Source of the DNA: a virus
Reading direction: 5' to 3' (one strand)
IMG/VR virus record: IMGVR_UViG_3300029394_000152
Length of the DNA: 64,000 nucleotides
Below are positions 11,086 through 35,476 of the stretch, piece by piece. The notes below the pieces were generated by a model, which did not search any database, was not told the origin of the DNA, and saw only the letters and a list, made by a program, of their open reading frames with translations. The translations under genes and the position numbers were made by a program. Within the stretch, counting starts at the first letter, position 1. The number at the start of each line of letters is the position of its first letter.

Positions 11086-11163
11086 CCGGGTGTAGCGCAG
11101 TTTTGGTAGCGCGCTTGAATGGGGTTCAAGAGGCCGTGAGTTCGATTCTCGCCACTCGGACCA
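11086..11163 (+). tRNA. tRNA-Pro (GGG)
   Basis: cloverleaf with 7-bp acceptor, C1:G72 and A73 typical of bacterial tRNA-Pro, anticodon loop AUGGGGU, T-loop TTCGATT, encoded CCA. Confidence 0.8.
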
Positions 11164-12670
11164 GACGCATCCCAGACGAACTTTCTTTTTGTAAGTTTGT
11201 CTGGGATGTTTTTTTGTTTTTGTTAACGGTTTCGTCCGAAACATTAAAATTGATAACCAGTTCACGGTCGCTAACTACCATACTTGTTACAAAAGTGTTA
11301 ACAAGACGGCGACCATACTCCGGTGTGCGCTCGGACGGCTCCACCAAGAACTGTTCCAGCAGGAAAAGGTACTGTTCTTTGGTGAATACAACCGGCTTCT
11401 CCTTTTCCAGAGCAGAGAGCTGGAAGTTCAGAGTGCGCTCCTGTTCGCTCAGATCGTCCAGACGGGCGCACAGCTGCGCATTGGCGGTGCCGTTTTCGAT
11501 GGCGTCCAGAATGTTCTTACTACGGCGGCGGACATCGGCAAGGCTCTGTTCGATGGCTACGCGCTCGGCGTTTGGTTTTTCCGCATCAGCCTTTTGCACC
11601 TCGACCATAGCTTCGGCCAGCGCTTCCATGGCTTCCGGCTGCAAGAGGTGATCCGAGATGGACTGCATGACCTTTCCTTCCAGATCGTCCTTCGGGATGT
11701 TCCGCAGGTGGCAGTTCTTGTTGGGACAGGTGTAGTAGCGGTAGACCTCGCCGGTGGCGCTGTGGCCGCTCATGCCGCGCATGAGGGAACCGCAGGAGCA
11801 GTAGAGCTTGCCGGACAGGATATAGTCCGCTTTCGGTTCATTCTTTGCCTTGAGCTGACGGTTCAGTTTCAACATGGTTTGTGCCCTCTCCCAAAGTTCG
11901 TCGTCGATAATGGCCGGAATGGCCCCTTCAATGCGCACATCATACGATTTGCTGACGTACACGCCGCGATAGGCTTCGTTCTGGATGATCCGGGGAATGC
12001 TGCTCTTGTTGAAGGGGTTGCCCTGACTGGTACGCAGACCTTTGGCGTTGAGCTTATCTACAATAGAGGTGGCGGATTCCCCGGCGGCGTAATGCTCAAA
12101 GATGAAGCGGACGGTGGGAGCGGTCTTTTCATCAATGACAAACCGTTTGTGTTCGTCCGTTTTCAGGCCAAGGGCACGGCATCGGCTGATGGCCTGCCCC
12201 TTGAGGGCACTTTCTCTCATGCCGCGGCGCATCTTCTCGGCCAGCTCGGCAGAGTAGTATTCGGCCAGCGCTTCCATCACGCCCTCAATGATGATACCTT
12301 CCGCACCGGCGATATTGGATTCTGCGGCATAAACGATCTCAACGCCGTTGTCACGCAGGCGTTTCTTGTACACGGCAGAATCATAGCGGTTCCGGGCGAA
12401 GCGGTCTGTTTTCCAGCAAATCACCATATCGAATGCGCCCTTGTCGCTGTCAGTAATCATTTGCTGGAACGCTGCACGATCATCGGTCTTGCCGCTGATG
12501 TGGCGATCCACATATTCTTTCTGAATGGTCATGTTGTGCAGGCGGGCGTAGGTCTCGCAGTCCCGGCGCTGGCCCTCAATGGACTGCTCGGTCTGCCCGC
12601 TGCCGCCGCTGTATCTGTAATAGGCGACCAGCCGCACTTCGCCGCCCTTGTTGAATTTTCTTTTTGCCAT
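11126..12670 (-). CDS. large serine recombinase (prophage integrase)
   Basis: N-terminal resolvase catalytic domain (YYRYSGGSGQ...) with a long zinc-ribbon/coiled-coil C-terminal recombinase domain; last 13 codons overlap the tRNA-Pro 3' end. Confidence 0.9.
   Translation of the reverse strand: MAKRKFNKGGEVRLVAYYRYSGGSGQTEQSIEGQRRDCETYARLHNMTIQKEYVDRHISGKTDDRAAFQQMITDSDKGAFDMVICWKTDRFARNRYDSAVYKKRLRDNGVEIVYAAESNIAGAEGIIIEGVMEALAEYYSAELAEKMRRGMRESALKGQAISRCRALGLKTDEHKRFVIDEKTAPTVRFIFEHYAAGESATSIVDKLNAKGLRTSQGNPFNKSSIPRIIQNEAYRGVYVSKSYDVRIEGAIPAIIDDELWERAQTMLKLNRQLKAKNEPKADYILSGKLYCSCGSLMRGMSGHSATGEVYRYYTCPNKNCHLRNIPKDDLEGKVMQSISDHLLQPEAMEALAEAMVEVQKADAEKPNAERVAIEQSLADVRRRSKNILDAIENGTANAQLCARLDDLSEQERTLNFQLSALEKEKPVVFTKEQYLFLLEQFLVEPSERTPEYGRRLVNTFVTSMVVSDRELVINFNVSDETVNKNKKTSQTNLQKESSSGMRLVRVARIELTAS
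11167..11218 (+). terminator. rho-independent terminator after the tRNA
   Basis: perfect 10-bp inverted repeat catcccagac/gtctgggatg followed by TTTTTTTGTTTTTG; lies inside the 3' coding end of the recombinase on the other strand. Confidence 0.6.
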
Positions 12671-28336: not shown

Positions 28337-28584
28337 AAGGGGCTGTAAAATGGCTTATGCCTGATTTTTGATAGAAAACCTGCAAAAACAGGCCCTTAGA
28401 ATCGAACTTCAGCGATCTTAATTCGTGCCGGAAAGACACTATAGGGTAGAGAATGAAGCGAATTTATGCGCGTGCAGAATGAAGGGCTTCCGCGAAACCT
28501 CCGAACCGCTCAGAAAAACAAACTTGCGAATCGTCAAAAACAGAAATCCCCCGGCGGGTAATTCCGTCGAGGGATTTCGTGCGT

Positions 28585-28842
28585 TTATGGTTCGTTTTTC
28601 TTGATGATGATTTTCGGAACAGTGGGCGGTTCGCCGTGCTGCTTCATGTACTCGGCGATTTCGTTCGGCAGGCCAACAGGAAAGCCGTTTTCGTCCAGCG
28701 GCCCGTCATACCCGGAAAAATCCACAACATGAACCGTGGGCGGTTCCTGCAGGGTGTCGCAATACTGGCCGTCCTCATAGTTTACATCCGTGACACGGTT
28801 CCAATAGCCAATGTCGCCGTGCTCGGTCTGGGCGGCTTCCAT
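28585..28842 (-). CDS. hypothetical protein (cassette array member)
   Basis: 85 aa; last gene of the minus-strand array. Confidence 0.4.
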   Translation of the reverse strand: MEAAQTEHGDIGYWNRVTDVNYEDGQYCDTLQEPPTVHVVDFSGYDGPLDENGFPVGLPNEIAEYMKQHGEPPTVPKIIIKKNEP

Positions 28843-29065
28843 TGCGGCGTGGGCCTGTTCCTCGGTCAGTCCGTCGAACGTGGCGCGTGTGCCGTCGGCA
28901 AAACTGGCAACCAGACGCCAAGGTGCAAAAAATTCGACTTCGTTCGTAAAAATGCCCCCTTTTTTGCAAATTCGTTGCTGGAATTGAACTTTTCGTGCTT
29001 GAAAAGTCCAATTTCGTTAGTGAAAGTATATCACAAGATGCCCCGGCATGGAACCGGGGCACGCG

Positions 29066-29383
29066 TCATTCTTGTTCCTCTAAGCGCTTGCGAAAGGCTT
29101 TGCTCACGGTGTCGTACTGCTTGTTCAGAACATCGTTGCCGTGGTCGTACTCGCTTGCCCACGAAAGCAGCTTGTCGGACAGACACCGGCAGGCAGCCGC
29201 CATGCAGGCGCAATATTCGTTGTGGGTGTTGGGCAAGGGAAAGCTGCGCAGGATGTACATTTCATCGAAAACGGTATGCCGGACTTCAATGCGCCCGTTC
29301 CAGATCGTTATGTTGACAGTGGCTAAGTGGCGGCAGGAAGTGACCCTGTGCAGGACTGAGAGAAAGCGTTCGTTGGTTGTCAT
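29066..29383 (-). CDS. hypothetical protein (cassette array member)
   Basis: conserved leader cacgaaaaggagcaacgaacc before the ATG. Confidence 0.45.
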   Translation of the reverse strand: MTTNERFLSVLHRVTSCRHLATVNITIWNGRIEVRHTVFDEMYILRSFPLPNTHNEYCACMAAACRCLSDKLLSWASEYDHGNDVLNKQYDTVSKAFRKRLEEQE

Positions 29384-29414
29384 GGTTCGTTGCTCCTTTT
29401 CGTGGTGGTGATGT

Positions 29415-29603
29415 TCAGCGTGCCGGGCGGCGCTGGAAGATAAAGCCGGGGTTGTGCTCGGTCATCCATGCAACGGCATAGTCGGCTTGCTCCTTGAGGA
29501 AGCGCGGCGCGTATACCTTGCCCATGCCGCGGGTGCCTTTCCATGGATTGCAAAGCGTGAAGCGCTTTTCGTTGGGGCCTTTGCAGTAAATGAAGTAGTA
29601 CAT
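29415..29603 (-). CDS. hypothetical small protein (cassette array member)
   Basis: 62 aa from the MYYFIY start; leader cacgaaaggacgaaacga. Confidence 0.4.
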   Translation of the reverse strand: MYYFIYCKGPNEKRFTLCNPWKGTRGMGKVYAPRFLKEQADYAVAWMTEHNPGFIFQRRPAR

Positions 29604-29706
29604 TCGTTTCGTCCTTTCGTGATTCACCCCGGCGGGGCAGTGGATCGGCATTCAACCGACTACAAAATGAAGTCAATTCTCCTATTTTCCCCGGCGGAGC
29701 GGTCTG

Positions 29707-29964
29707 TTAGCAGATGCTTTGCGCAATTTCGTGCAGCGTCTTTTCCTGATCCCGGAGATAACGCGCATTGTCGGCGGCGTGGATGAACTTTGGGGAACCG
29801 TCCTCGTTCGTTTCAAGGGCCAGCCTTTCCCACGCTTCAATTTCACCGTTGCGGTACTTCGTGGAAGTGAGAAGGTAGAAATACAGGGTGTTCCACTGGT
29901 CAGCGGTGAGGGTGACGGTGCGCAGACCGCCGCCGGATTCGGTGCTTTGCTGTTTGGCTGTCAT
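29707..29964 (-). CDS. hypothetical protein (cassette array member)
   Basis: leader cacgaaaacgaaaaggagc. Confidence 0.45.
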   Translation of the reverse strand: MTAKQQSTESGGGLRTVTLTADQWNTLYFYLLTSTKYRNGEIEAWERLALETNEDGSPKFIHAADNARYLRDQEKTLHEIAQSIC

Positions 29965-30070
29965 GGTTCATAGCTCCTTTTCGTTTTCGTGATGTTCCCG
30001 ACATTTATGCCGGGAAGATGGGGCGGGGCCGCTTTGAATCGGTGCGGCCCTGCTGGGGTGTCCGCTTTTA

Positions 30071-30991
30071 TTATTCGTTTTCGTTGCCGTCCAGAAACTC
30101 CATGACACGGTGCGCTGCATATTTGGCGTTTGCGGTAAGCTGGCGCTGCCAAGCGCCCTGACTGGGTGCCCACCGGAAACCGTTCTCTTTGAGCATGGCG
30201 CGGGTTTCGTCGTCCGGCTTTCCGGGAAAGATGAATTGCACGCGCATGATTTCGTTGTTCTCACGGTAGGTGTAGCCGTCGTGCTGATCTTCAACGGGGC
30301 CGGATGCAGCGGAGGCTTGCGCTTTGTCGAGTTCGTCAAGGCGGGTCTGAATCCGCTTGATCTTGCCGCGGATACTGGTCAACTCAAAATCGTCGTAGGG
30401 CTTGCGGTACAGGCTCATTGAAAAGGCGTCCGGGCTGGTGAGGGCATCGGCTGCCGCGTCGCTCATGTTGGAATAGCCGCGCAAGGTTTTGTGCTTCCGG
30501 TAATAGGCATTGGCACCCTTGCAGTATTCGAGCAGGTCTTGCTCTTTGTTCAGCTGATCCGTGAGCAGTTCGCGGGCGTGGGGGTCGGCCAGATCAACGG
30601 GGCCGGTGCCAACCGCCTTGATTTTCGTCAAGATGGCTTCGATTTCTTCATATTCGTGCCAAAGCGTATCCTCGCGGGCGTTCTGCTTCTGCTTCTTTCG
30701 CACCGGGAAGTTACCAGCACCGCACACCAGCACAGAGGGGCAGCTTGCACCGTTCCGGTTGTGGTCGTCCGTCCACTGTGCAAGGCGGCGGGCGTAGCTG
30801 TCAAGCAGCGCGTCCAGCTTTTCGTGATAGTATGGGCTGACTTTCTGCTTCTTTTCTTCGACCAGAGCGGCGGCATTGTCCACGCTGGCACGGTATTCTC
30901 TGGTTGCATAGCCGTCCGGATAGGTGCTCATGCTGCGCATATTGTGGGAAGCACGGGCCAGATTTTCGTTGATGGGATAGTATGTTGTCAT
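30071..30991 (-). CDS. hypothetical protein (cassette array member)
   Basis: 306 aa from the MTTYYPINEN start; leader cacgaaacgcgaaaaggagc; GC-rich hairpin abuts the stop. Confidence 0.5.
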   Translation of the reverse strand: MTTYYPINENLARASHNMRSMSTYPDGYATREYRASVDNAAALVEEKKQKVSPYYHEKLDALLDSYARRLAQWTDDHNRNGASCPSVLVCGAGNFPVRKKQKQNAREDTLWHEYEEIEAILTKIKAVGTGPVDLADPHARELLTDQLNKEQDLLEYCKGANAYYRKHKTLRGYSNMSDAAADALTSPDAFSMSLYRKPYDDFELTSIRGKIKRIQTRLDELDKAQASAASGPVEDQHDGYTYRENNEIMRVQFIFPGKPDDETRAMLKENGFRWAPSQGAWQRQLTANAKYAAHRVMEFLDGNENE

Positions 30992-31083
30992 AATTCGTTT
31001 GCTCCTTTTCGCGTTTCGTGTTGTGCCTTTCGGCTGGGATCGGGTCGCTTTACGGTGCGGCCCGTCAAGGTATCCGGCGCGGA

Positions 31084-31569
31084 TCAGATGCACCACGGCG
31101 CGGCGTTGTATGCTGCATTCTGCTGGGCGGCGAATGCGTACAAGTGGTTTGAAGTCTTTACAAGCGCTTTCTGTAAATTCGTGTCTGCCGTGGCCTGTTC
31201 TTCGCACTGGTAAATGTAGCAGTCAAGCAGCTTCAGGAATTTGAAGAAATCAGCATCGAGAAAATAATGCTCGTTGTAGTCCAGACGGTGCAGCAGGTGC
31301 GGCACATTGTCCGGAATGGCTGGCACTTCGTCGGTTTCGTCCGGCTCTGCCTTATAGCGCCCTTCATACGCGGCTTCGTTGTGCCGGTACAGAACGGGGT
31401 AGATTCGACGGTCGTCATACAGAAAATCGTGCGGGTATTTGCAAGCGCCCAGAGCGTCGCGCAATTCGTCGGCGGCGGAAAGCTGGCACATTTCGGATTG
31501 ATTGAGCAGGTACGACAGACCGTGCGCAACGGTGGCGATGTGGGCGGGGGAAAGCATCATGCAAGACAT
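31084..31569 (-). CDS. hypothetical protein (cassette array member)
   Basis: 161 aa; AGGAGG RBS. Confidence 0.45.
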   Translation of the reverse strand: MSCMMLSPAHIATVAHGLSYLLNQSEMCQLSAADELRDALGACKYPHDFLYDDRRIYPVLYRHNEAAYEGRYKAEPDETDEVPAIPDNVPHLLHRLDYNEHYFLDADFFKFLKLLDCYIYQCEEQATADTNLQKALVKTSNHLYAFAAQQNAAYNAAPWCI

Positions 31570-31689
31570 AAATTCAAGCCTCCTGTTTTCGTTTTTCGTG
31601 TTTCGTGACGATCCCCCGGCGGGGTGCCGGTGGGAAGTGGGGCGGGGCCGCTTTGAACGGTGCGGCCCTGCTGGGGTCTCCGTTTCGTG

Positions 31690-32631
31690 TTATGCAAAGC
31701 AAAGCTGCTGCACGGTGGGAACCATTTCGGGGGTCTTTGCCTTTTCCAGATTGTCAAGGGCCATTACAAACGCGGCGGCTTCGCGGTCGCTGCTGATAAG
31801 GTCGCCCATGTATTTATTGAACTTCTGGACGGTGGCGGCAAACTGGGAATCGTTGGCGCTCATTTCGTCGAACTTGTCCACGGCGTCGTAAAACTCGCCG
31901 CTCTCGTGGTCGTCGTCGGTCTGGTACAGGCGGGAATAGTTCTTGACGAAAGCGTTTTTCAGTTCTTCCATGTCCGGCCCGGTGGGTTTCGTTTCGGCTT
32001 TCTTTGCCGGGGCCTTTTTGGCGGTGCGCTTCGTGGCCTTTTTCGTGGGCAGCGGATCGACGTGCACCAGTTCCGGCAACTCGTGGTGTTCTTCGGTGAT
32101 GATCGGGGCGGTGGCTTCGGCCTTTGCCTTTTCGGCGGCGGCTTTCGCTGCTTTCCGTTCGGCTGCCAGCTTCTTGTTATACTCGATGATTGCAGCGGTC
32201 GATCCAAACCGGCCAGCCGGGGCGGGCTTGCTGCTTTCAACCTGTAAGCAACTGAACAGGTGCGATTTCGTGGGGTAGTAATGCGGATCGGGGGCCGCTT
32301 CCTTGCCCTCTGCCGCTGCTTTTTCTCGCTGCTCTTTGCTGGGCTTCGTGGTGTACTTCCAGAGGTAGCAGCAAACAAGATGCTTTTCACCCTTTTTGAC
32401 GCTCTTACCCTCTTTCTTCCAGTGGTCGAATGTGTGCAGCTCGTCGGCTGCAAGCATGATTTCGACATCGGCCACGGTGGCGGGCTGTTCGTTGCCGTTC
32501 TCGTCGGTGGTTTTGCAAGCGGCGGCAATGGCGGCGATCTCGTCCGGGGTGTGGTGCGCGGTGGCGATGGCGTGCAGGGTGGCAGGGTCAAGCCGGGCGG
32601 CTTCGTTGCGGATGATCTGATTGTTCGTCAT
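31690..32631 (-). CDS. ArdC-N (DUF1738)-like ssDNA-binding domain protein
   Basis: motif LHTFDHWKKEGKSVKKGEKHLV resembles the ArdC_N TF.QW..G..V.KGEKG signature; Ala/Lys-rich linker and a C-terminal domain. Confidence 0.35.
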   Translation of the reverse strand: MTNNQIIRNEAARLDPATLHAIATAHHTPDEIAAIAAACKTTDENGNEQPATVADVEIMLAADELHTFDHWKKEGKSVKKGEKHLVCCYLWKYTTKPSKEQREKAAAEGKEAAPDPHYYPTKSHLFSCLQVESSKPAPAGRFGSTAAIIEYNKKLAAERKAAKAAAEKAKAEATAPIITEEHHELPELVHVDPLPTKKATKRTAKKAPAKKAETKPTGPDMEELKNAFVKNYSRLYQTDDDHESGEFYDAVDKFDEMSANDSQFAATVQKFNKYMGDLISSDREAAAFVMALDNLEKAKTPEMVPTVQQLCFA

Positions 32632-32735
32632 GGTAAATACTTCCTTTCAATTTTTGTTGTGGTTCTTCCCGGCGGGGCCGGGTGGATGGGATCGGGTCGC
32701 TTTTCGGTGCGGCCCGTCAAGGTATCCGGCGGGGA

Positions 32736-32948
32736 TCATGCGAGAAGTTCAGCGGCGGCGGTTTGATAGTCGGGAAACTCGTAGAACGTGCGCTGTTCGT
32801 CGTTCGTGTTCTCGTTCGTGATGCGGGCGACGATCCGCCGCCCCGTGTTCATGTCCCACCCCTCAAGCCGGAACCCGGCGGACAACAGGCGGCGGGCGGC
32901 GTGGTTTTCGTTGCGGCATTCGTTGCGGATTTCTTCAAGGGTTTTCAT
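32736..32948 (-). CDS. hypothetical small protein (cassette array member)
   Basis: 70 aa; AAAGGAG RBS. Confidence 0.4.
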   Translation of the reverse strand: MKTLEEIRNECRNENHAARRLLSAGFRLEGWDMNTGRRIVARITNENTNDEQRTFYEFPDYQTAAAELLA

Positions 32949-32966
32949 GTTGTGCGCTCCTTTCGT

Positions 32967-33308
32967 TCAATCGTCGATCCCGTCGCAATCGTGACAATAC
33001 AGGGCATCAATAACGCGGTCGTCGCTGAAGTCGTCCGGGGTTCCGTTAGCATCGACCACAAGATCGATCCGGTCATTGATCCGCAATTCGGTTTCGTTGT
33101 CCACGATGAAAAACCAGTCGTCACCGTCCAGCGCGTCACTGCACCAGACTTCAATCTGGTTTTCGTTGGTGGCGGTCATGCCTTGCACAATGGCCGGGGC
33201 GATATACCGCCCCAAAGGGCCGACTTTGTAGGGACAGGCGGCAGCGGCGCGGGGTGCGCCGGACAGCAGCGCGGCGGCAAGTGCGGCGGCGGTCAAAATT
33301 CGTTTCAT
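32967..33308 (-). CDS. secreted Asp-rich small protein (signal peptide)
   Basis: MKRILTAAALAAALLSGAPRAAAA signal sequence followed by a D-rich region. Confidence 0.45.
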   Translation of the reverse strand: MKRILTAAALAAALLSGAPRAAAACPYKVGPLGRYIAPAIVQGMTATNENQIEVWCSDALDGDDWFFIVDNETELRINDRIDLVVDANGTPDDFSDDRVIDALYCHDCDGIDD

Positions 33309-33426
33309 GGTTGTTTCTCCTTTTCGTTTCGTGGTGTGGCTTTTCGTGCTTTTCCCCGGCTATTGTCGGGGCGTGGGATCGGGTCGCTTTTCGTGGTGCG
33401 GCCCGTCAAGGTATCCGGGGCGGCGT

Positions 33427-33831
33427 TCATGCCGGAATGTTGTAAATCTCGTTGAAGATGTCCAGCGCGTCGAGATCGGCGGCTTTCTGTCGTGCTGCAT
33501 TCACCGCGCCGCGGTCGTCGTGGCCGTTGAAGTGGTACGCTTCAATAAAGGCGTTGCGGATCAGATCGGCGGTGTGCTGGTGCTCCTGCAGCGCTTCCCA
33601 TTCGGCCCGGTCACGGATCAAAATTGTACAAGTCCATGCGCAAGAGCTGAAAGCCTGCAGAACGTCAACGTGAAACGATTTGCACCGGTTCAGCGCGGCG
33701 GTGATTTGGTCGCGCTCCTTGCGATCCATCGGAACGATGGAATAGGCGGGAATGTACCAGCCAGAAACGGGGGAGATGTTCCACCCGTGCCGGGCGGCGA
33801 TCTGGTTTACTTTCTTGTCAAATGCGGTCAT
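33427..33831 (-). CDS. hypothetical protein (cassette array member)
   Basis: 134 aa from the MTAFDKK start; AAAGGAG RBS. Confidence 0.45.
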   Translation of the reverse strand: MTAFDKKVNQIAARHGWNISPVSGWYIPAYSIVPMDRKERDQITAALNRCKSFHVDVLQAFSSCAWTCTILIRDRAEWEALQEHQHTADLIRNAFIEAYHFNGHDDRGAVNAARQKAADLDALDIFNEIYNIPA

Positions 33832-34031
33832 GTTCTCGATCTCCTTTTGATTTTGGTTTTGACCCGGCGGAATGCCGGACCCCATGAGCGCCCGCCCCGT
33901 TTGGGGCGGCTGGACTTGCACCAGCGGCGGCGGATGCCGTCGGCCTTGCGGGGCGGGCTTGACTTCACTTCCTTTCGGTGGTAAAATCAGATTGCTTGAA
34001 AAAGTGCTTGTTCATGCGAACAAGTAGGCTG

Positions 34032-34139
34032 TCAACCGGTGGTGCGGTTGGCGGCTTTTTTCTTTGCCCATTCAGCCATGAGCGCGGCCCAAACGGCACG
34101 CTTGACGGCTTTCGGCAGCTCGAAAAAGTGTTTATTCAT
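34032..34139 (-). CDS. hypothetical 35-aa peptide (first gene of the array)
   Basis: AAAGGAGAA RBS; the MNKHFF start motif is repeated 130 nt downstream. Confidence 0.25.
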   Translation of the reverse strand: MNKHFFELPKAVKRAVWAALMAEWAKKKAANRTTG

Positions 34140-34172
34140 GCGGCTTTTCTCCTTTCGGCTTATTCAGCTTGC

Positions 34173-34308
34173 AACCCTGTACCGTGTCGCTCGCTGTGGC
34201 ACTACTCTAGCACGGTACAGGGTTGATTGTCAAGCCCTATACCGTGCTTTCTGCGTTTTGCACAAAACCCTATACCGTGCTTTGTGCAAATTGACACTGT
34301 ACAGGGTT
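34173..34308. promoter_or_regulatory. operator cluster: five 14-bp CCCT(G/A)TACCGTG sites in direct and inverted orientation
   Basis: AACCCTGTACCGTG, CACGGTACAGGGTT, AGCCCTATACCGTG, AACCCTATACCGTG and CACTGTACAGGGTT between the divergent array and the RHH gene. Confidence 0.55.
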
Positions 34309-34356
34309 GGGCGAAAATGCTATATTTTATATATAAAAATAAACAGGGGTAATATT

Positions 34357-34602
34357 ATGGCTGTATCAGCAAGAAAAAGACTGAATAACGACAAATACAA
34401 CGCAAAATGCACGCAAATAAACCTGAAACCGTTGACACCGGAAGCAAATGCAATAAAAGCCGCGGCAAAAGCGTCTGGGCAAAGCATACAGGGATATATT
34501 TTACAGGCCGTGCGGGAACGTATGGCAAAAGAGGGCCAGCCGTTGACGCTGGACGACTTGCCGGGGGCTGATTCCGTGGGCGGCGATTCCGTGAAACCGT
34601 GA
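34357..34602 (+). CDS. ribbon-helix-helix (CopG/Arc-like) regulator
   Basis: 81 aa; the TQINLKPLTPEANAIKAAAKASGQSIQGYILQAV region suggests an RHH beta-strand/helix signature. Confidence 0.5.
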   Translation: MAVSARKRLNNDKYNAKCTQINLKPLTPEANAIKAAAKASGQSIQGYILQAVRERMAKEGQPLTLDDLPGADSVGGDSVKP

Positions 34603-34789
34603 AAAGCGGGGAAGAAGGGGGACTATAGGGGGTTACTGGGGCGGCATATAGCCTAGTTAACCCTTACCACTGCAGCGATATGCCGTTAAGTGAAGAATCT
34701 GACCCCTTCGGCAAACAGCAAAAACAGCCCTGCACCGGGGCGACAACAGCAGCAGAAAAGGCCGGGACGACCGACGCACAACGCGCCGC

Positions 34790-35215
34790 CGCCCCGGCCT
34801 TTTTTCTTTTTGCCCGCTATGCCGGGCCGCTCACACTGCACCGCCTGCAGCAGCCAGCGCCCGCCGCGCACCGGCTGCACCGGGCATTCCGCCGCCGCCC
34901 TGCCTGCTGCATACCATGCCAGCGCCGCCCGCCTGCCCTATGCCAGCATACAGCAGACCGCCGCGCCCTACTGCACCGCCTGCACACTGCCAGCCATGCA
35001 GCAGCCAGCACCGCCCGCCGCCTTGCCGCGCCTGCCAGATCGCCGCCGCGCCCGGCCTGCTTTGGGGCGGATCGCTGGCCCGCTGGCCCCGCCCGCCTGC
35101 CGGATCGCCGCCGCGCTGGCGCTGCCCGGCCCGCCGCGCCGCCTCTTGCAATGACCCCGCGCCCGCCGCCCGGCGCCGGGCCGATGACCACGGCCCGCCC
35201 GCCCCGCGCCCGTAG
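34790..35215. repeat. about 78% GC low-complexity repeat-rich non-coding tract upstream of terS (candidate pac/cos region)
   Basis: GCCGCC/CCGCC-rich; repeated caccgcctgca...cagcagccagc blocks about 130 bp apart; only mutually overlapping spurious ORFs. Confidence 0.4.
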
Positions 35216-35476
35216 GTACTGGGAGCGGCGTTTCAATCCTTTACGGGTCCGAAAGCCCGAAAATTTTCTAGGTATAAACGGATTTTTGCCCTTCCCCAGA
35301 AGGGGGTCTGAAAAAATTTAGGGGGATTTTTTGAAGAAAATTTTCAAAATGATGTATCGTGATGCCTTTTTCCTGCTATAATCGGTACAGTGATAGGTGC
35401 GAAGCTCCATGACATTCCGTCGTGGGGCTTTTTCTTTTGCGTGTATTTTGGAAACGGGGTGCAGGAGTGATGCCGG

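Follow-up and report, generated by a model that had tools for sequence, protein, structure and literature searches.

Twister and hammerhead ribozymes of bacteria are found in the same phage-linked gene neighbourhoods, and a role in processing polycistronic mRNAs has been proposed for them (PMC6765202). The RAGATH-5 RNA (R5; RF02685), which Rfam types as a ribozyme, is much smaller than twister-sister (TS), hammerhead or twister RNAs, consisting of about 50 nucleotides (nt) and a single hairpin, and its catalysis is only putative. Weinberg and colleagues reportedly found the motif in 2015 in a search around genes that accompany twister and hammerhead ribozymes. To our knowledge its self-cleavage is not established, and we found no paper in the open-access literature that mentions RAGATH-5 by name. 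Here we describe five R5 copies in an array of 11 co-oriented minus-strand genes (g1 to g11) at 28.5–34.2 kb of a 64,000-nt stretch of viral DNA (IMG/VR record IMGVR_UViG_3300029394_000152), the whole of which we call the window. The same array carries a bona fide TS ribozyme in an equivalent intercistronic slot, and we consider it probable that R5 and TS modules act as RNA punctuation that processes a polycistronic mRNA into single-gene pieces.

RAGATH-5 copies at the gene junctions

The original prediction for this locus described about ten genes, each followed at its stop codon by one of two related GC-rich repeats, likened the layout to cassette arrays such as integron attC spacing, and suggested that the repeats could be processing or stability sites, single-stranded DNA (ssDNA) promoters or recombination modules. 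Both repeat variants are real: GATACCTTGAC...GCGACCCGATCCCA occurs three times (copies a, 33418–33367; b, 32729–32680; and d, 31077–31028) and CCCCAGCAGGGCCGC...GCGGCCCCGCCCCA twice (copies c, 31683–31631; and e, 30065–30012). They are not a new attC-like or ssDNA-promoter element, being copies of R5, a catalogued and curated RNA family that is modelled on the gene-sense strand. The whole window was scanned against the Rfam covariance models at their curated thresholds, yielding exactly seven matches, namely one tRNA, one TS and five R5, and the six matches to the two ribozyme-type families all lie above those thresholds on the gene strand (minus). The R5 matches score 58.0–68.8 bits against a threshold of 50, cover model positions 1–53 of 53 and have E-values over the whole window of 1e-7 to 3e-10; a 24-nt R5 consensus pattern is expected 0.02 times in shuffled sequences. 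Fitted by one covariance model at these scores, the repeats are far beyond chance; each starts 5–8 nt after a stop codon. The hallmarks of RAGATH-5, as judged from the cmscan output and an alignment of 135 sequences, are all present: an interrupted GC stem, an ACCG...AAAG loop, a CGGAYACC 5′ tail and a CCCA 3′ tail. The multi-copy Oscillospiraceae phage-like setting and the ribozyme neighbourhood are also the same as those of the family, and the motif itself is identical.

Copy a (61.0 bits) starts 8 nt after the g2 stop codon; copies b (65.5 bits), c (68.8 bits) and d (58.0 bits) each start 6 nt after the stop codons of g4, g5 and g6, respectively, and copy e (65.3 bits) starts 5 nt after that of g7. 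A further hairpin, which we call hairpin 2, is present on the same strand after all five copies and after TS. It lies at 33354–33371 downstream of copy a (CCCCG...CGGGG), and RNAfold places it at 32668–32682 for copy b (CCCGGC-CCC-GCCGGG), 31612–31635 for copy c, 31025–31034 for copy d (GCC-GAAA-GGC) and 29995–30016 for copy e, for which the whole module has a z score of -3.1. R5 follows only g2, g4, g5, g6 and g7, that is, five of 11 genes instead of every gene of about ten, and the original prediction missed the TS (33956–33875) that follows g1; g11 is followed by a terminator. The modular layout that it described stands up well, each R5 module running from stop codon through R5, a small hairpin and a CA-rich leader to the next gene. 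Its conserved leader is real too: of the 19 CACGAAA copies in the window, 16 lie on the minus strand inside 28575–33395, and ACGAAA...AAGGAG is found directly before the ATG in about seven of the 11 genes.

The R5 core pattern matched more than 119 IMG/VR stretches, with up to nine R5 copies per locus at the Rfam threshold. Among species-representative genomes, only those of Oscillospiraceae/Ruminococcaceae-type organisms, including Faecalibacterium, Gemmiger, Subdoligranulum, Oscillibacter, Acutalibacter and Flavonifractor, hold true R5; 39 of the 73 pattern matches in this genome scan, from Proteobacteria and others, lacked the full motif and were discarded as chance. Geometry was assessed on 257 distinct R5 copies from related contigs. 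All but two (255 of 257) have a same-strand open reading frame (ORF) of at least 50 codons that ends -13 to +41 nt upstream of R5, with approximately 88% at 0–11 nt, and 253 of 257 have a Shine–Dalgarno (SD) sequence and start codon downstream, at a median of 52 nt. A stable GC hairpin, of the type CCCGGC...GCCGGG and with some compensatory variants, is found 4–9 nt after the CCCA tail in 84% of 173 distinct leaders.

The 135-sequence alignment gives further information on the R5 structure. Stem pair 21–40 covaries (CG in 96 sequences and UA in 34), pair 20–41 is CG in 35, UG in 22 and C.A in 78, and the unpaired blocks GGA, CACC, AAAG and CCCA are invariant. These invariant unpaired nucleotides point to a tertiary fold or to a surface for specific recognition. 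An XGG sequence in the 5′ tail can be set against CCY in the loop, and in 302 parsed copies the X:Y combinations are C:G 273, C:A 16, G:C 5, U:A 4, U:G 3 and C:U 1, so that G is always opposite C, and U always opposite A or G. This distribution supports a putative small H-type pseudoknot of 3 base pairs between the 5′ tail and the loop. We rejected an extension to a fourth or fifth pair, as pair 4 was paired in 48% of copies versus 31% in shuffles but a slid control was enriched too.

Ribozymes and gene exchange in the same slots

The TS ribozyme of the window (RF02681, minus strand) scores 77.4 bits against a threshold of 34, matches model positions 1–81 of 81 and holds all conserved core blocks (GCAAGGCC...GUGCAAG...GGCGCUCAU) in the cmscan alignment. 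It is directly followed by a CCGGC-AUUCC-GCCGG hairpin (33864–33878, minus strand; RNAfold). TS RNAs are cleaved at the C-A step of loop L1, C62-A63 (PMC11620745), and by analogy the window copy is predicted to be cleaved between C33886 and A33885.

R5 and TS occupy equivalent positions. Across related R5 loci, 48 TS copies in 41 loci have a stop codon 0–12 nt before them and a start codon 25–66 nt after. At the g1/g2 junction the window carries TS, whereas the relatives FP_Toutatis and Lelie carry a divergent R5, with the spacer and the g2 leader homologous in all three phages. Elsewhere, either TS or R5 can precede one and the same downstream gene (6 of 37 cases) and follow one and the same upstream gene (12 of 35). 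The RAGATH motifs are said to have been found originally by ribozyme-neighbourhood logic, which is here resolved to orthologous slots. Because R5 shares these slots with TS and hammerhead ribozymes, its role appears to be exerted at the RNA level. In many TS modules of the relatives, moreover, a downstream CCC is available to re-pair with the GGG released by cleavage, which suggests selection for a hairpin at the new 5′ end.

A contig of Gemmiger sp. An87 (NFHD01000035.1, 700–4650) holds four R5 copies, a type II hammerhead and TS, interleaved and co-oriented, besides one borderline second TS match. The DUF3800-VIII RNA (RF03075) occurs a few kb from R5 arrays in three related loci (L028, 5084–5151; L131, 7383–7449; L144, 4050–4117).

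Genes are shuffled at the repeats. The 251 R5 junctions analysed fall into 61 upstream and 59 downstream gene clusters, which are joined in 88 distinct combinations; 17 upstream clusters have at least two partners, and the start of g3 is found with eight different upstream partners. The shuffling of cassettes between repeats that the original prediction had proposed to look for is therefore found, and it is visible in the window itself. FP_Toutatis matches the array at 98.4% identity from 32738 down to 28300 and at 95% upstream of 34028, differing between these points, with breakpoints at 34028 (4 nt after the g1 stop codon), 33420 (the start of R5 copy a), 32946 (the g4 ATG) and 32738 (the g4 stop codon and start of R5 copy b). 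R5 modules, which make up 10% of the array, contain four of ten distinct breakpoints (p = 0.014, small sample). The conserved repeat of roughly 50 nt suffices as homology for gene exchange between related phages, as a by-product of its presence. Given that homologous exchange through R5 explains the shuffling, no site-specific, integron-like system is needed.

Proposed processing of the transcript and alternative readings

In the mechanism that we propose, one repressor-controlled promoter at about 34.2 kb would drive a transcript of roughly 5.7 kb over the 11 genes, ending at a terminator at about 28.54 kb. Each punctuation module would consist of a stop codon, 0–11 nt, R5 (five modules) or TS (one module), a GC hairpin, an unstructured CA-rich leader, a strong SD sequence and an ATG. 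TS would cut at C33886^A33885 and stay on the upstream g1 fragment, leaving 7 nt at the start of the g2 mRNA ahead of the CCGGC/GCCGG hairpin, which would thus lie near the new 5′-OH end. R5 would mark an equivalent cut, probably near its CCCA tail, yielding an upstream piece with R5 as its 3′ hairpin and a downstream piece with hairpin 2 at its 5′ end and an open CA-rich leader. Products with a 5′-OH are substrates of RNase J1 in Firmicutes, as in the case of the glmS ribozyme, and 5′-proximal stem-loops block this enzyme; hairpin 2 may offer such protection. Every cistron would thereby end up on a separate mRNA that has protected ends and a leader of its own, presumably to the benefit of the phage.

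R5 might cleave itself, under conditions that have yet to be reproduced, or it might be recognised and cut by an endonuclease of the cell or the phage. RNase P is one candidate, as R5 is a helix followed by C-CCA. On our own reading of the alignment, this near-invariant C-CCA makes R5 superficially similar to an RNase P minihelix, but unlike a tRNA minihelix it has no T-loop, its helix comprises 9–10 layers rather than 12, and its conserved 5′ tail pairs with the loop. R5 also resembles Cas6-type CRISPR repeats, which are short hairpins with conserved flanks that split one long transcript; unlike in CRISPR, the units between R5 copies are protein-coding genes, and no cas gene or dedicated endoribonuclease was identified. 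A more ambitious version of this reading is that R5 is a genuine RNA-cleavage signal, either a tiny self-cleaving pseudoknotted hairpin that cuts near CCC-A or a minihelix-CCA mimic cut by RNase P, and at the same time a portable homology linker of about 50 nt for single-gene cassette swaps in gut phages. We put this forward only tentatively, as an idea with a minor chance of being right.

Several observations weigh against processing at R5. Among the RAGATH candidates, only TS, pistol and hatchet reportedly self-cleaved in vitro in the 2015 work of Weinberg and colleagues. Another candidate, RAGATH-18, proved to be a TnpB guide RNA (PMC11061315), and association with ribozymes is therefore no guarantee of the same function. 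Four of the ten operon junctions, those after g3, g8, g9 and g10, hold no recognised motif, and a permissive cmscan of the corresponding spacers (g3-g4, g8-g9, g9-g10 and g10-g11) at E<=5 returned noise only. The 3′ half of the g8-g9 spacer is a leader of the type that follows R5 (a CCCCGCCGGGG hairpin plus CACGAAAGGA), with a promoter-like box before it. Hairpin 2 is missing in about 16% of leaders. Moreover, C.A oppositions outnumber G.U pairs on the R5 sense strand, and the complementary strand folds better (-21.8 versus -14.6 kcal/mol by RNAfold; -17.95 versus -8.47 by RNAalifold). Folding energy was rejected as a guide to the functional strand, because the asymmetry is partly compositional, one strand being rich in G and U and the other in C and A. 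The better fold of the complementary strand keeps a role as bottom-strand DNA or antisense RNA alive, at low probability.

The alternative that survives best, although we judge it unlikely, is that R5 is a passive or protein-bound stability or insulation element, similar to repetitive extragenic palindromes (REP) or bacterial interspersed mosaic elements (BIME), on an mRNA that stays polycistronic. It might protect the upstream cistron from 3′ exonucleases, uncouple the translation of neighbouring genes or bind a regulator. REP/BIME elements and the tRNA punctuation of mitochondria are indeed like R5 in that a structured intercistronic RNA sets mRNA ends or stability, and R5 has both a stable GC stem and a position directly after stop codons. 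Self-cleavage of R5 was reportedly not demonstrated in the 2015 work, and its invariant unpaired bases could form a protein-binding surface. A passive hairpin, however, needs neither some 20 invariant unpaired nucleotides nor a pseudoknot, and the replacement of R5 by TS or hammerhead ribozymes in orthologous slots is hard to explain if cutting is irrelevant.

Considerably less probable is a DNA-level cassette boundary, in which the bottom strand of R5 would fold as ssDNA and be used by a recombinase, as attC is. Integron attC arrays likewise consist of co-oriented genes that lack promoters and are each directly followed by an imperfect hairpin repeat, with shuffling at the repeats. The order of stop codon, repeat and next gene resembles attC, genes are shuffled exactly at R5, and the complementary strand gives the better hairpin, G.T replacing C.A. 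Unlike integrons, these arrays have no IntI. No tyrosine recombinase or other candidate enzyme was found in or beside them, the sole recombinase detected in the prophage being a large serine integrase (11126–12670, minus strand). The original prediction had correctly seen no integrase inside the array and no GTTRRRY cores; we rejected an integron attC array, as no array protein has a recombinase domain and no RYYYAAC/GTTRRRY site lies within 25 nt of the five R5 copies. The primary sequence of R5, a sense-strand RNA family, is also far more conserved than that of attC, and ordinary homologous recombination, or recombination mediated by a single-strand annealing protein (SSAP), over about 50 nt suffices for the exchanges. 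Finally, catalysts that act only as RNA (TS and hammerhead) sit in the same slots.

We give still less credence to R5 acting as antisense RNA, for example during late plus-strand transcription that would start from the regulator side (27.8–28.3 kb) and cross the array toward terS. The better antisense folding and the head-on position of the array between a late-regulator gene and terS fit this idea. Yet 255 of 257 copies share their orientation with both flanking ORFs and keep fixed distances to stop and start, the A- and C-richness of the conserved loop and tails agrees with the sense model, and the folding asymmetry is partly generic to such G/U-rich and C/A-rich strand pairs. The GC-rich stem after each gene could lastly suggest ordinary intrinsic terminators or attenuators, or the ssDNA promoters of a leading region (Frpo/ssi type), but this is scarcely credible: downstream of the R5 copies come CCCA and C-rich sequence with no U tract, no copy was picked up by a terminator scan (a true stem and U run lies at 28536–28582), the approximately 50-nt element is of the wrong size and lacks -35/-10 hexamers, and the host element is not conjugative but a prophage with terS, a lambda gpA-type terL, a serine integrase and a tRNA-adjacent site.

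The operon, its prophage and what they offer

The 11 genes can be read as one regulated operon with a transcript of about 5.7 kb, judging by a promoter, operator-like repeats and a terminator. The best promoter-like site in the region is sigma-70-like (TTGACA, 18 nt, TG-n-TAGAGT; 34233–34204, minus strand), with 10/12 matches and a TG extension, and the g1 ATG lies 65 nt downstream. Five operator-like CACGGTAYAGGGTT half-sites, found by a repeat search at 34172–34309, are arranged as both inverted and direct repeats. They surround the divergent promoters that serve the operon and an 81-amino-acid (aa) gene, and may be bound by a protein; one pair is a perfect 15-nt inverted repeat (100% complementary) flanking the -10 box. 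The 81-aa gene (34357–34602, plus strand), a hypothetical coding sequence in FP_Toutatis, looks ribbon-helix-helix-like by eye. Its product has no Pfam match, and its position beside the operators makes it a putative small regulator. The operon ends at a canonical intrinsic terminator (28536–28582, minus strand) with an 11-bp stem followed by UUUUU (RNAfold -25.4 kcal/mol, z = -3.7), which partially matches the His_leader terminator in cmscan.

All array proteins were searched against Pfam, PHROGs and NCBIfam, and g5 and g7 also against PDB sequences; ten of the 11 have no family above threshold in the first three, and only unnamed PHROGs stood above threshold overall. The genes, all on the minus strand, begin with g1 (35 aa, 34032–34139), an ORF that has an GAAAGGAG SD sequence and is conserved in Toutatis and Lelie. 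Between g1 and TS lies a truncated duplicate of the g1 start, a 16-codon ORF (33965–34015) that forms a direct repeat with 88% identity over 25 nt to 34118–34142; the spacer differs there in Toutatis and Lelie. The products of g2 (134 aa, 33427–33831) and g3 (113 aa, 32967–33308) belong to PHROG 34109 and PHROG 32350, respectively, both of unknown function; the Asp-rich g3 product looks secreted or lipoprotein-like from its N-terminal peptide. The ORF g4 (70 aa, 32736–32948) is absent from Toutatis.

The only named similarity is that of g5 (313 aa, 31690–32631), which the original prediction called ArdC-N-like: the Pfam ArdcN match (E=9e-4) reaches 19.9 bits, below the cutoff of 22.6, and a match to a PHROG anti-restriction family has E=0.0047, leaving a weak ArdC-N-like segment. 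By PHROG search g6 (161 aa, 31084–31569) is of unknown function. Its neighbour g7 (306 aa, 30071–30991) is labelled 'primase' in FP_Toutatis and in PHROG 19458. We found this label unsupported, as more than 5600 homologues carry no Pfam domain and an AlphaFold2 model (pLDDT 89.9), with long helices and a small C-terminal beta domain, has no significant PDB fold match; g7 represents a large uncharacterised gut-phage family. This was the sole structure search run, so the suggested structural comparison with anti-defence families covers g7 alone and returned no match. An anti-defence role of the array genes is no more than plausible.

The remaining ORFs, subjected to the PHROG search, are g8 (85 aa, 29707–29964), g9 (62 aa, 29415–29603), g10 (105 aa, 29066–29383) and g11 (85 aa, 28585–28842). 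The g8-g9 spacer (29604–29706) is 103 nt long, a module-like length, and has no Rfam match; its 5′ half contains a TTGACT-N17-TGAATG box, also present at an unrelated non-coding site of another contig (L033, 2494–2526), and this part could represent an internal promoter or an element not yet catalogued. The g10-g11 spacer (28843–29065, 223 nt) is 96–100% conserved in 18 loci. The g11 frame is open for 42 codons upstream of its ATG, which has no SD sequence, and its true start is ambiguous.

The host element is an integrated Toutatisvirus prophage of Faecalibacterium, about 98% identical to Faecalibacterium phage FP_Toutatis. The homologous operons of FP_Toutatis and of phage Lelie have the same architecture and carry seven R5 copies each; the Toutatis paper and a preprint on Toutatisvirus hotspots mention neither ribozymes nor the R5 array. 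A tRNA gene (11086–11160, plus strand) overlaps the 3′ end of the serine recombinase gene and marks the left end of the prophage, window positions 1–11 kb being host DNA that includes a histidine kinase gene. Beyond the array lie terS (from 35477) and the lambda gpA-type terL (from 36809). Between the small divergent regulator gene and terS is a non-coding spacer of about 800 nt (34650–35470) with 64–65% GC and a 33-nt tandem repeat at 35068–35136. In view of the gpA-type terL, the spacer is a candidate for the cos region; the R5 operon would then sit at one end of the virion DNA. The GC-rich spacer, the gpA-type terminase and the repressor-controlled promoter together fit an entry-proximal, transiently expressed operon, and an operon so controlled beside a probable cos end may belong to the DNA that enters a new host first.

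The association of R5 with ribozyme-rich phage operons has been known since 2015, and our finding is therefore already known in kind. What is added here is the exchange of slots with TS, the stop and start geometry, hairpin 2, the pseudoknot and the shuffling of genes; these possibly figure already in the original description of the motif and establish no new system, but they sharpen a testable hypothesis for RAGATH-5. The role of self-cleaving ribozymes in bacteria and phages, and that of the RAGATH motifs that do not cleave in vitro, has been open since 2014–2015. The operon offers a compact natural test bed for both, as it combines a validated ribozyme class with five copies of an unexplained motif in interchangeable positions on a single transcript, in a phage group with cultured relatives (FP_Toutatis and Lelie). 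It also shows how abundant phages of the human gut can exchange genes along seams formed by a repeated RNA element.

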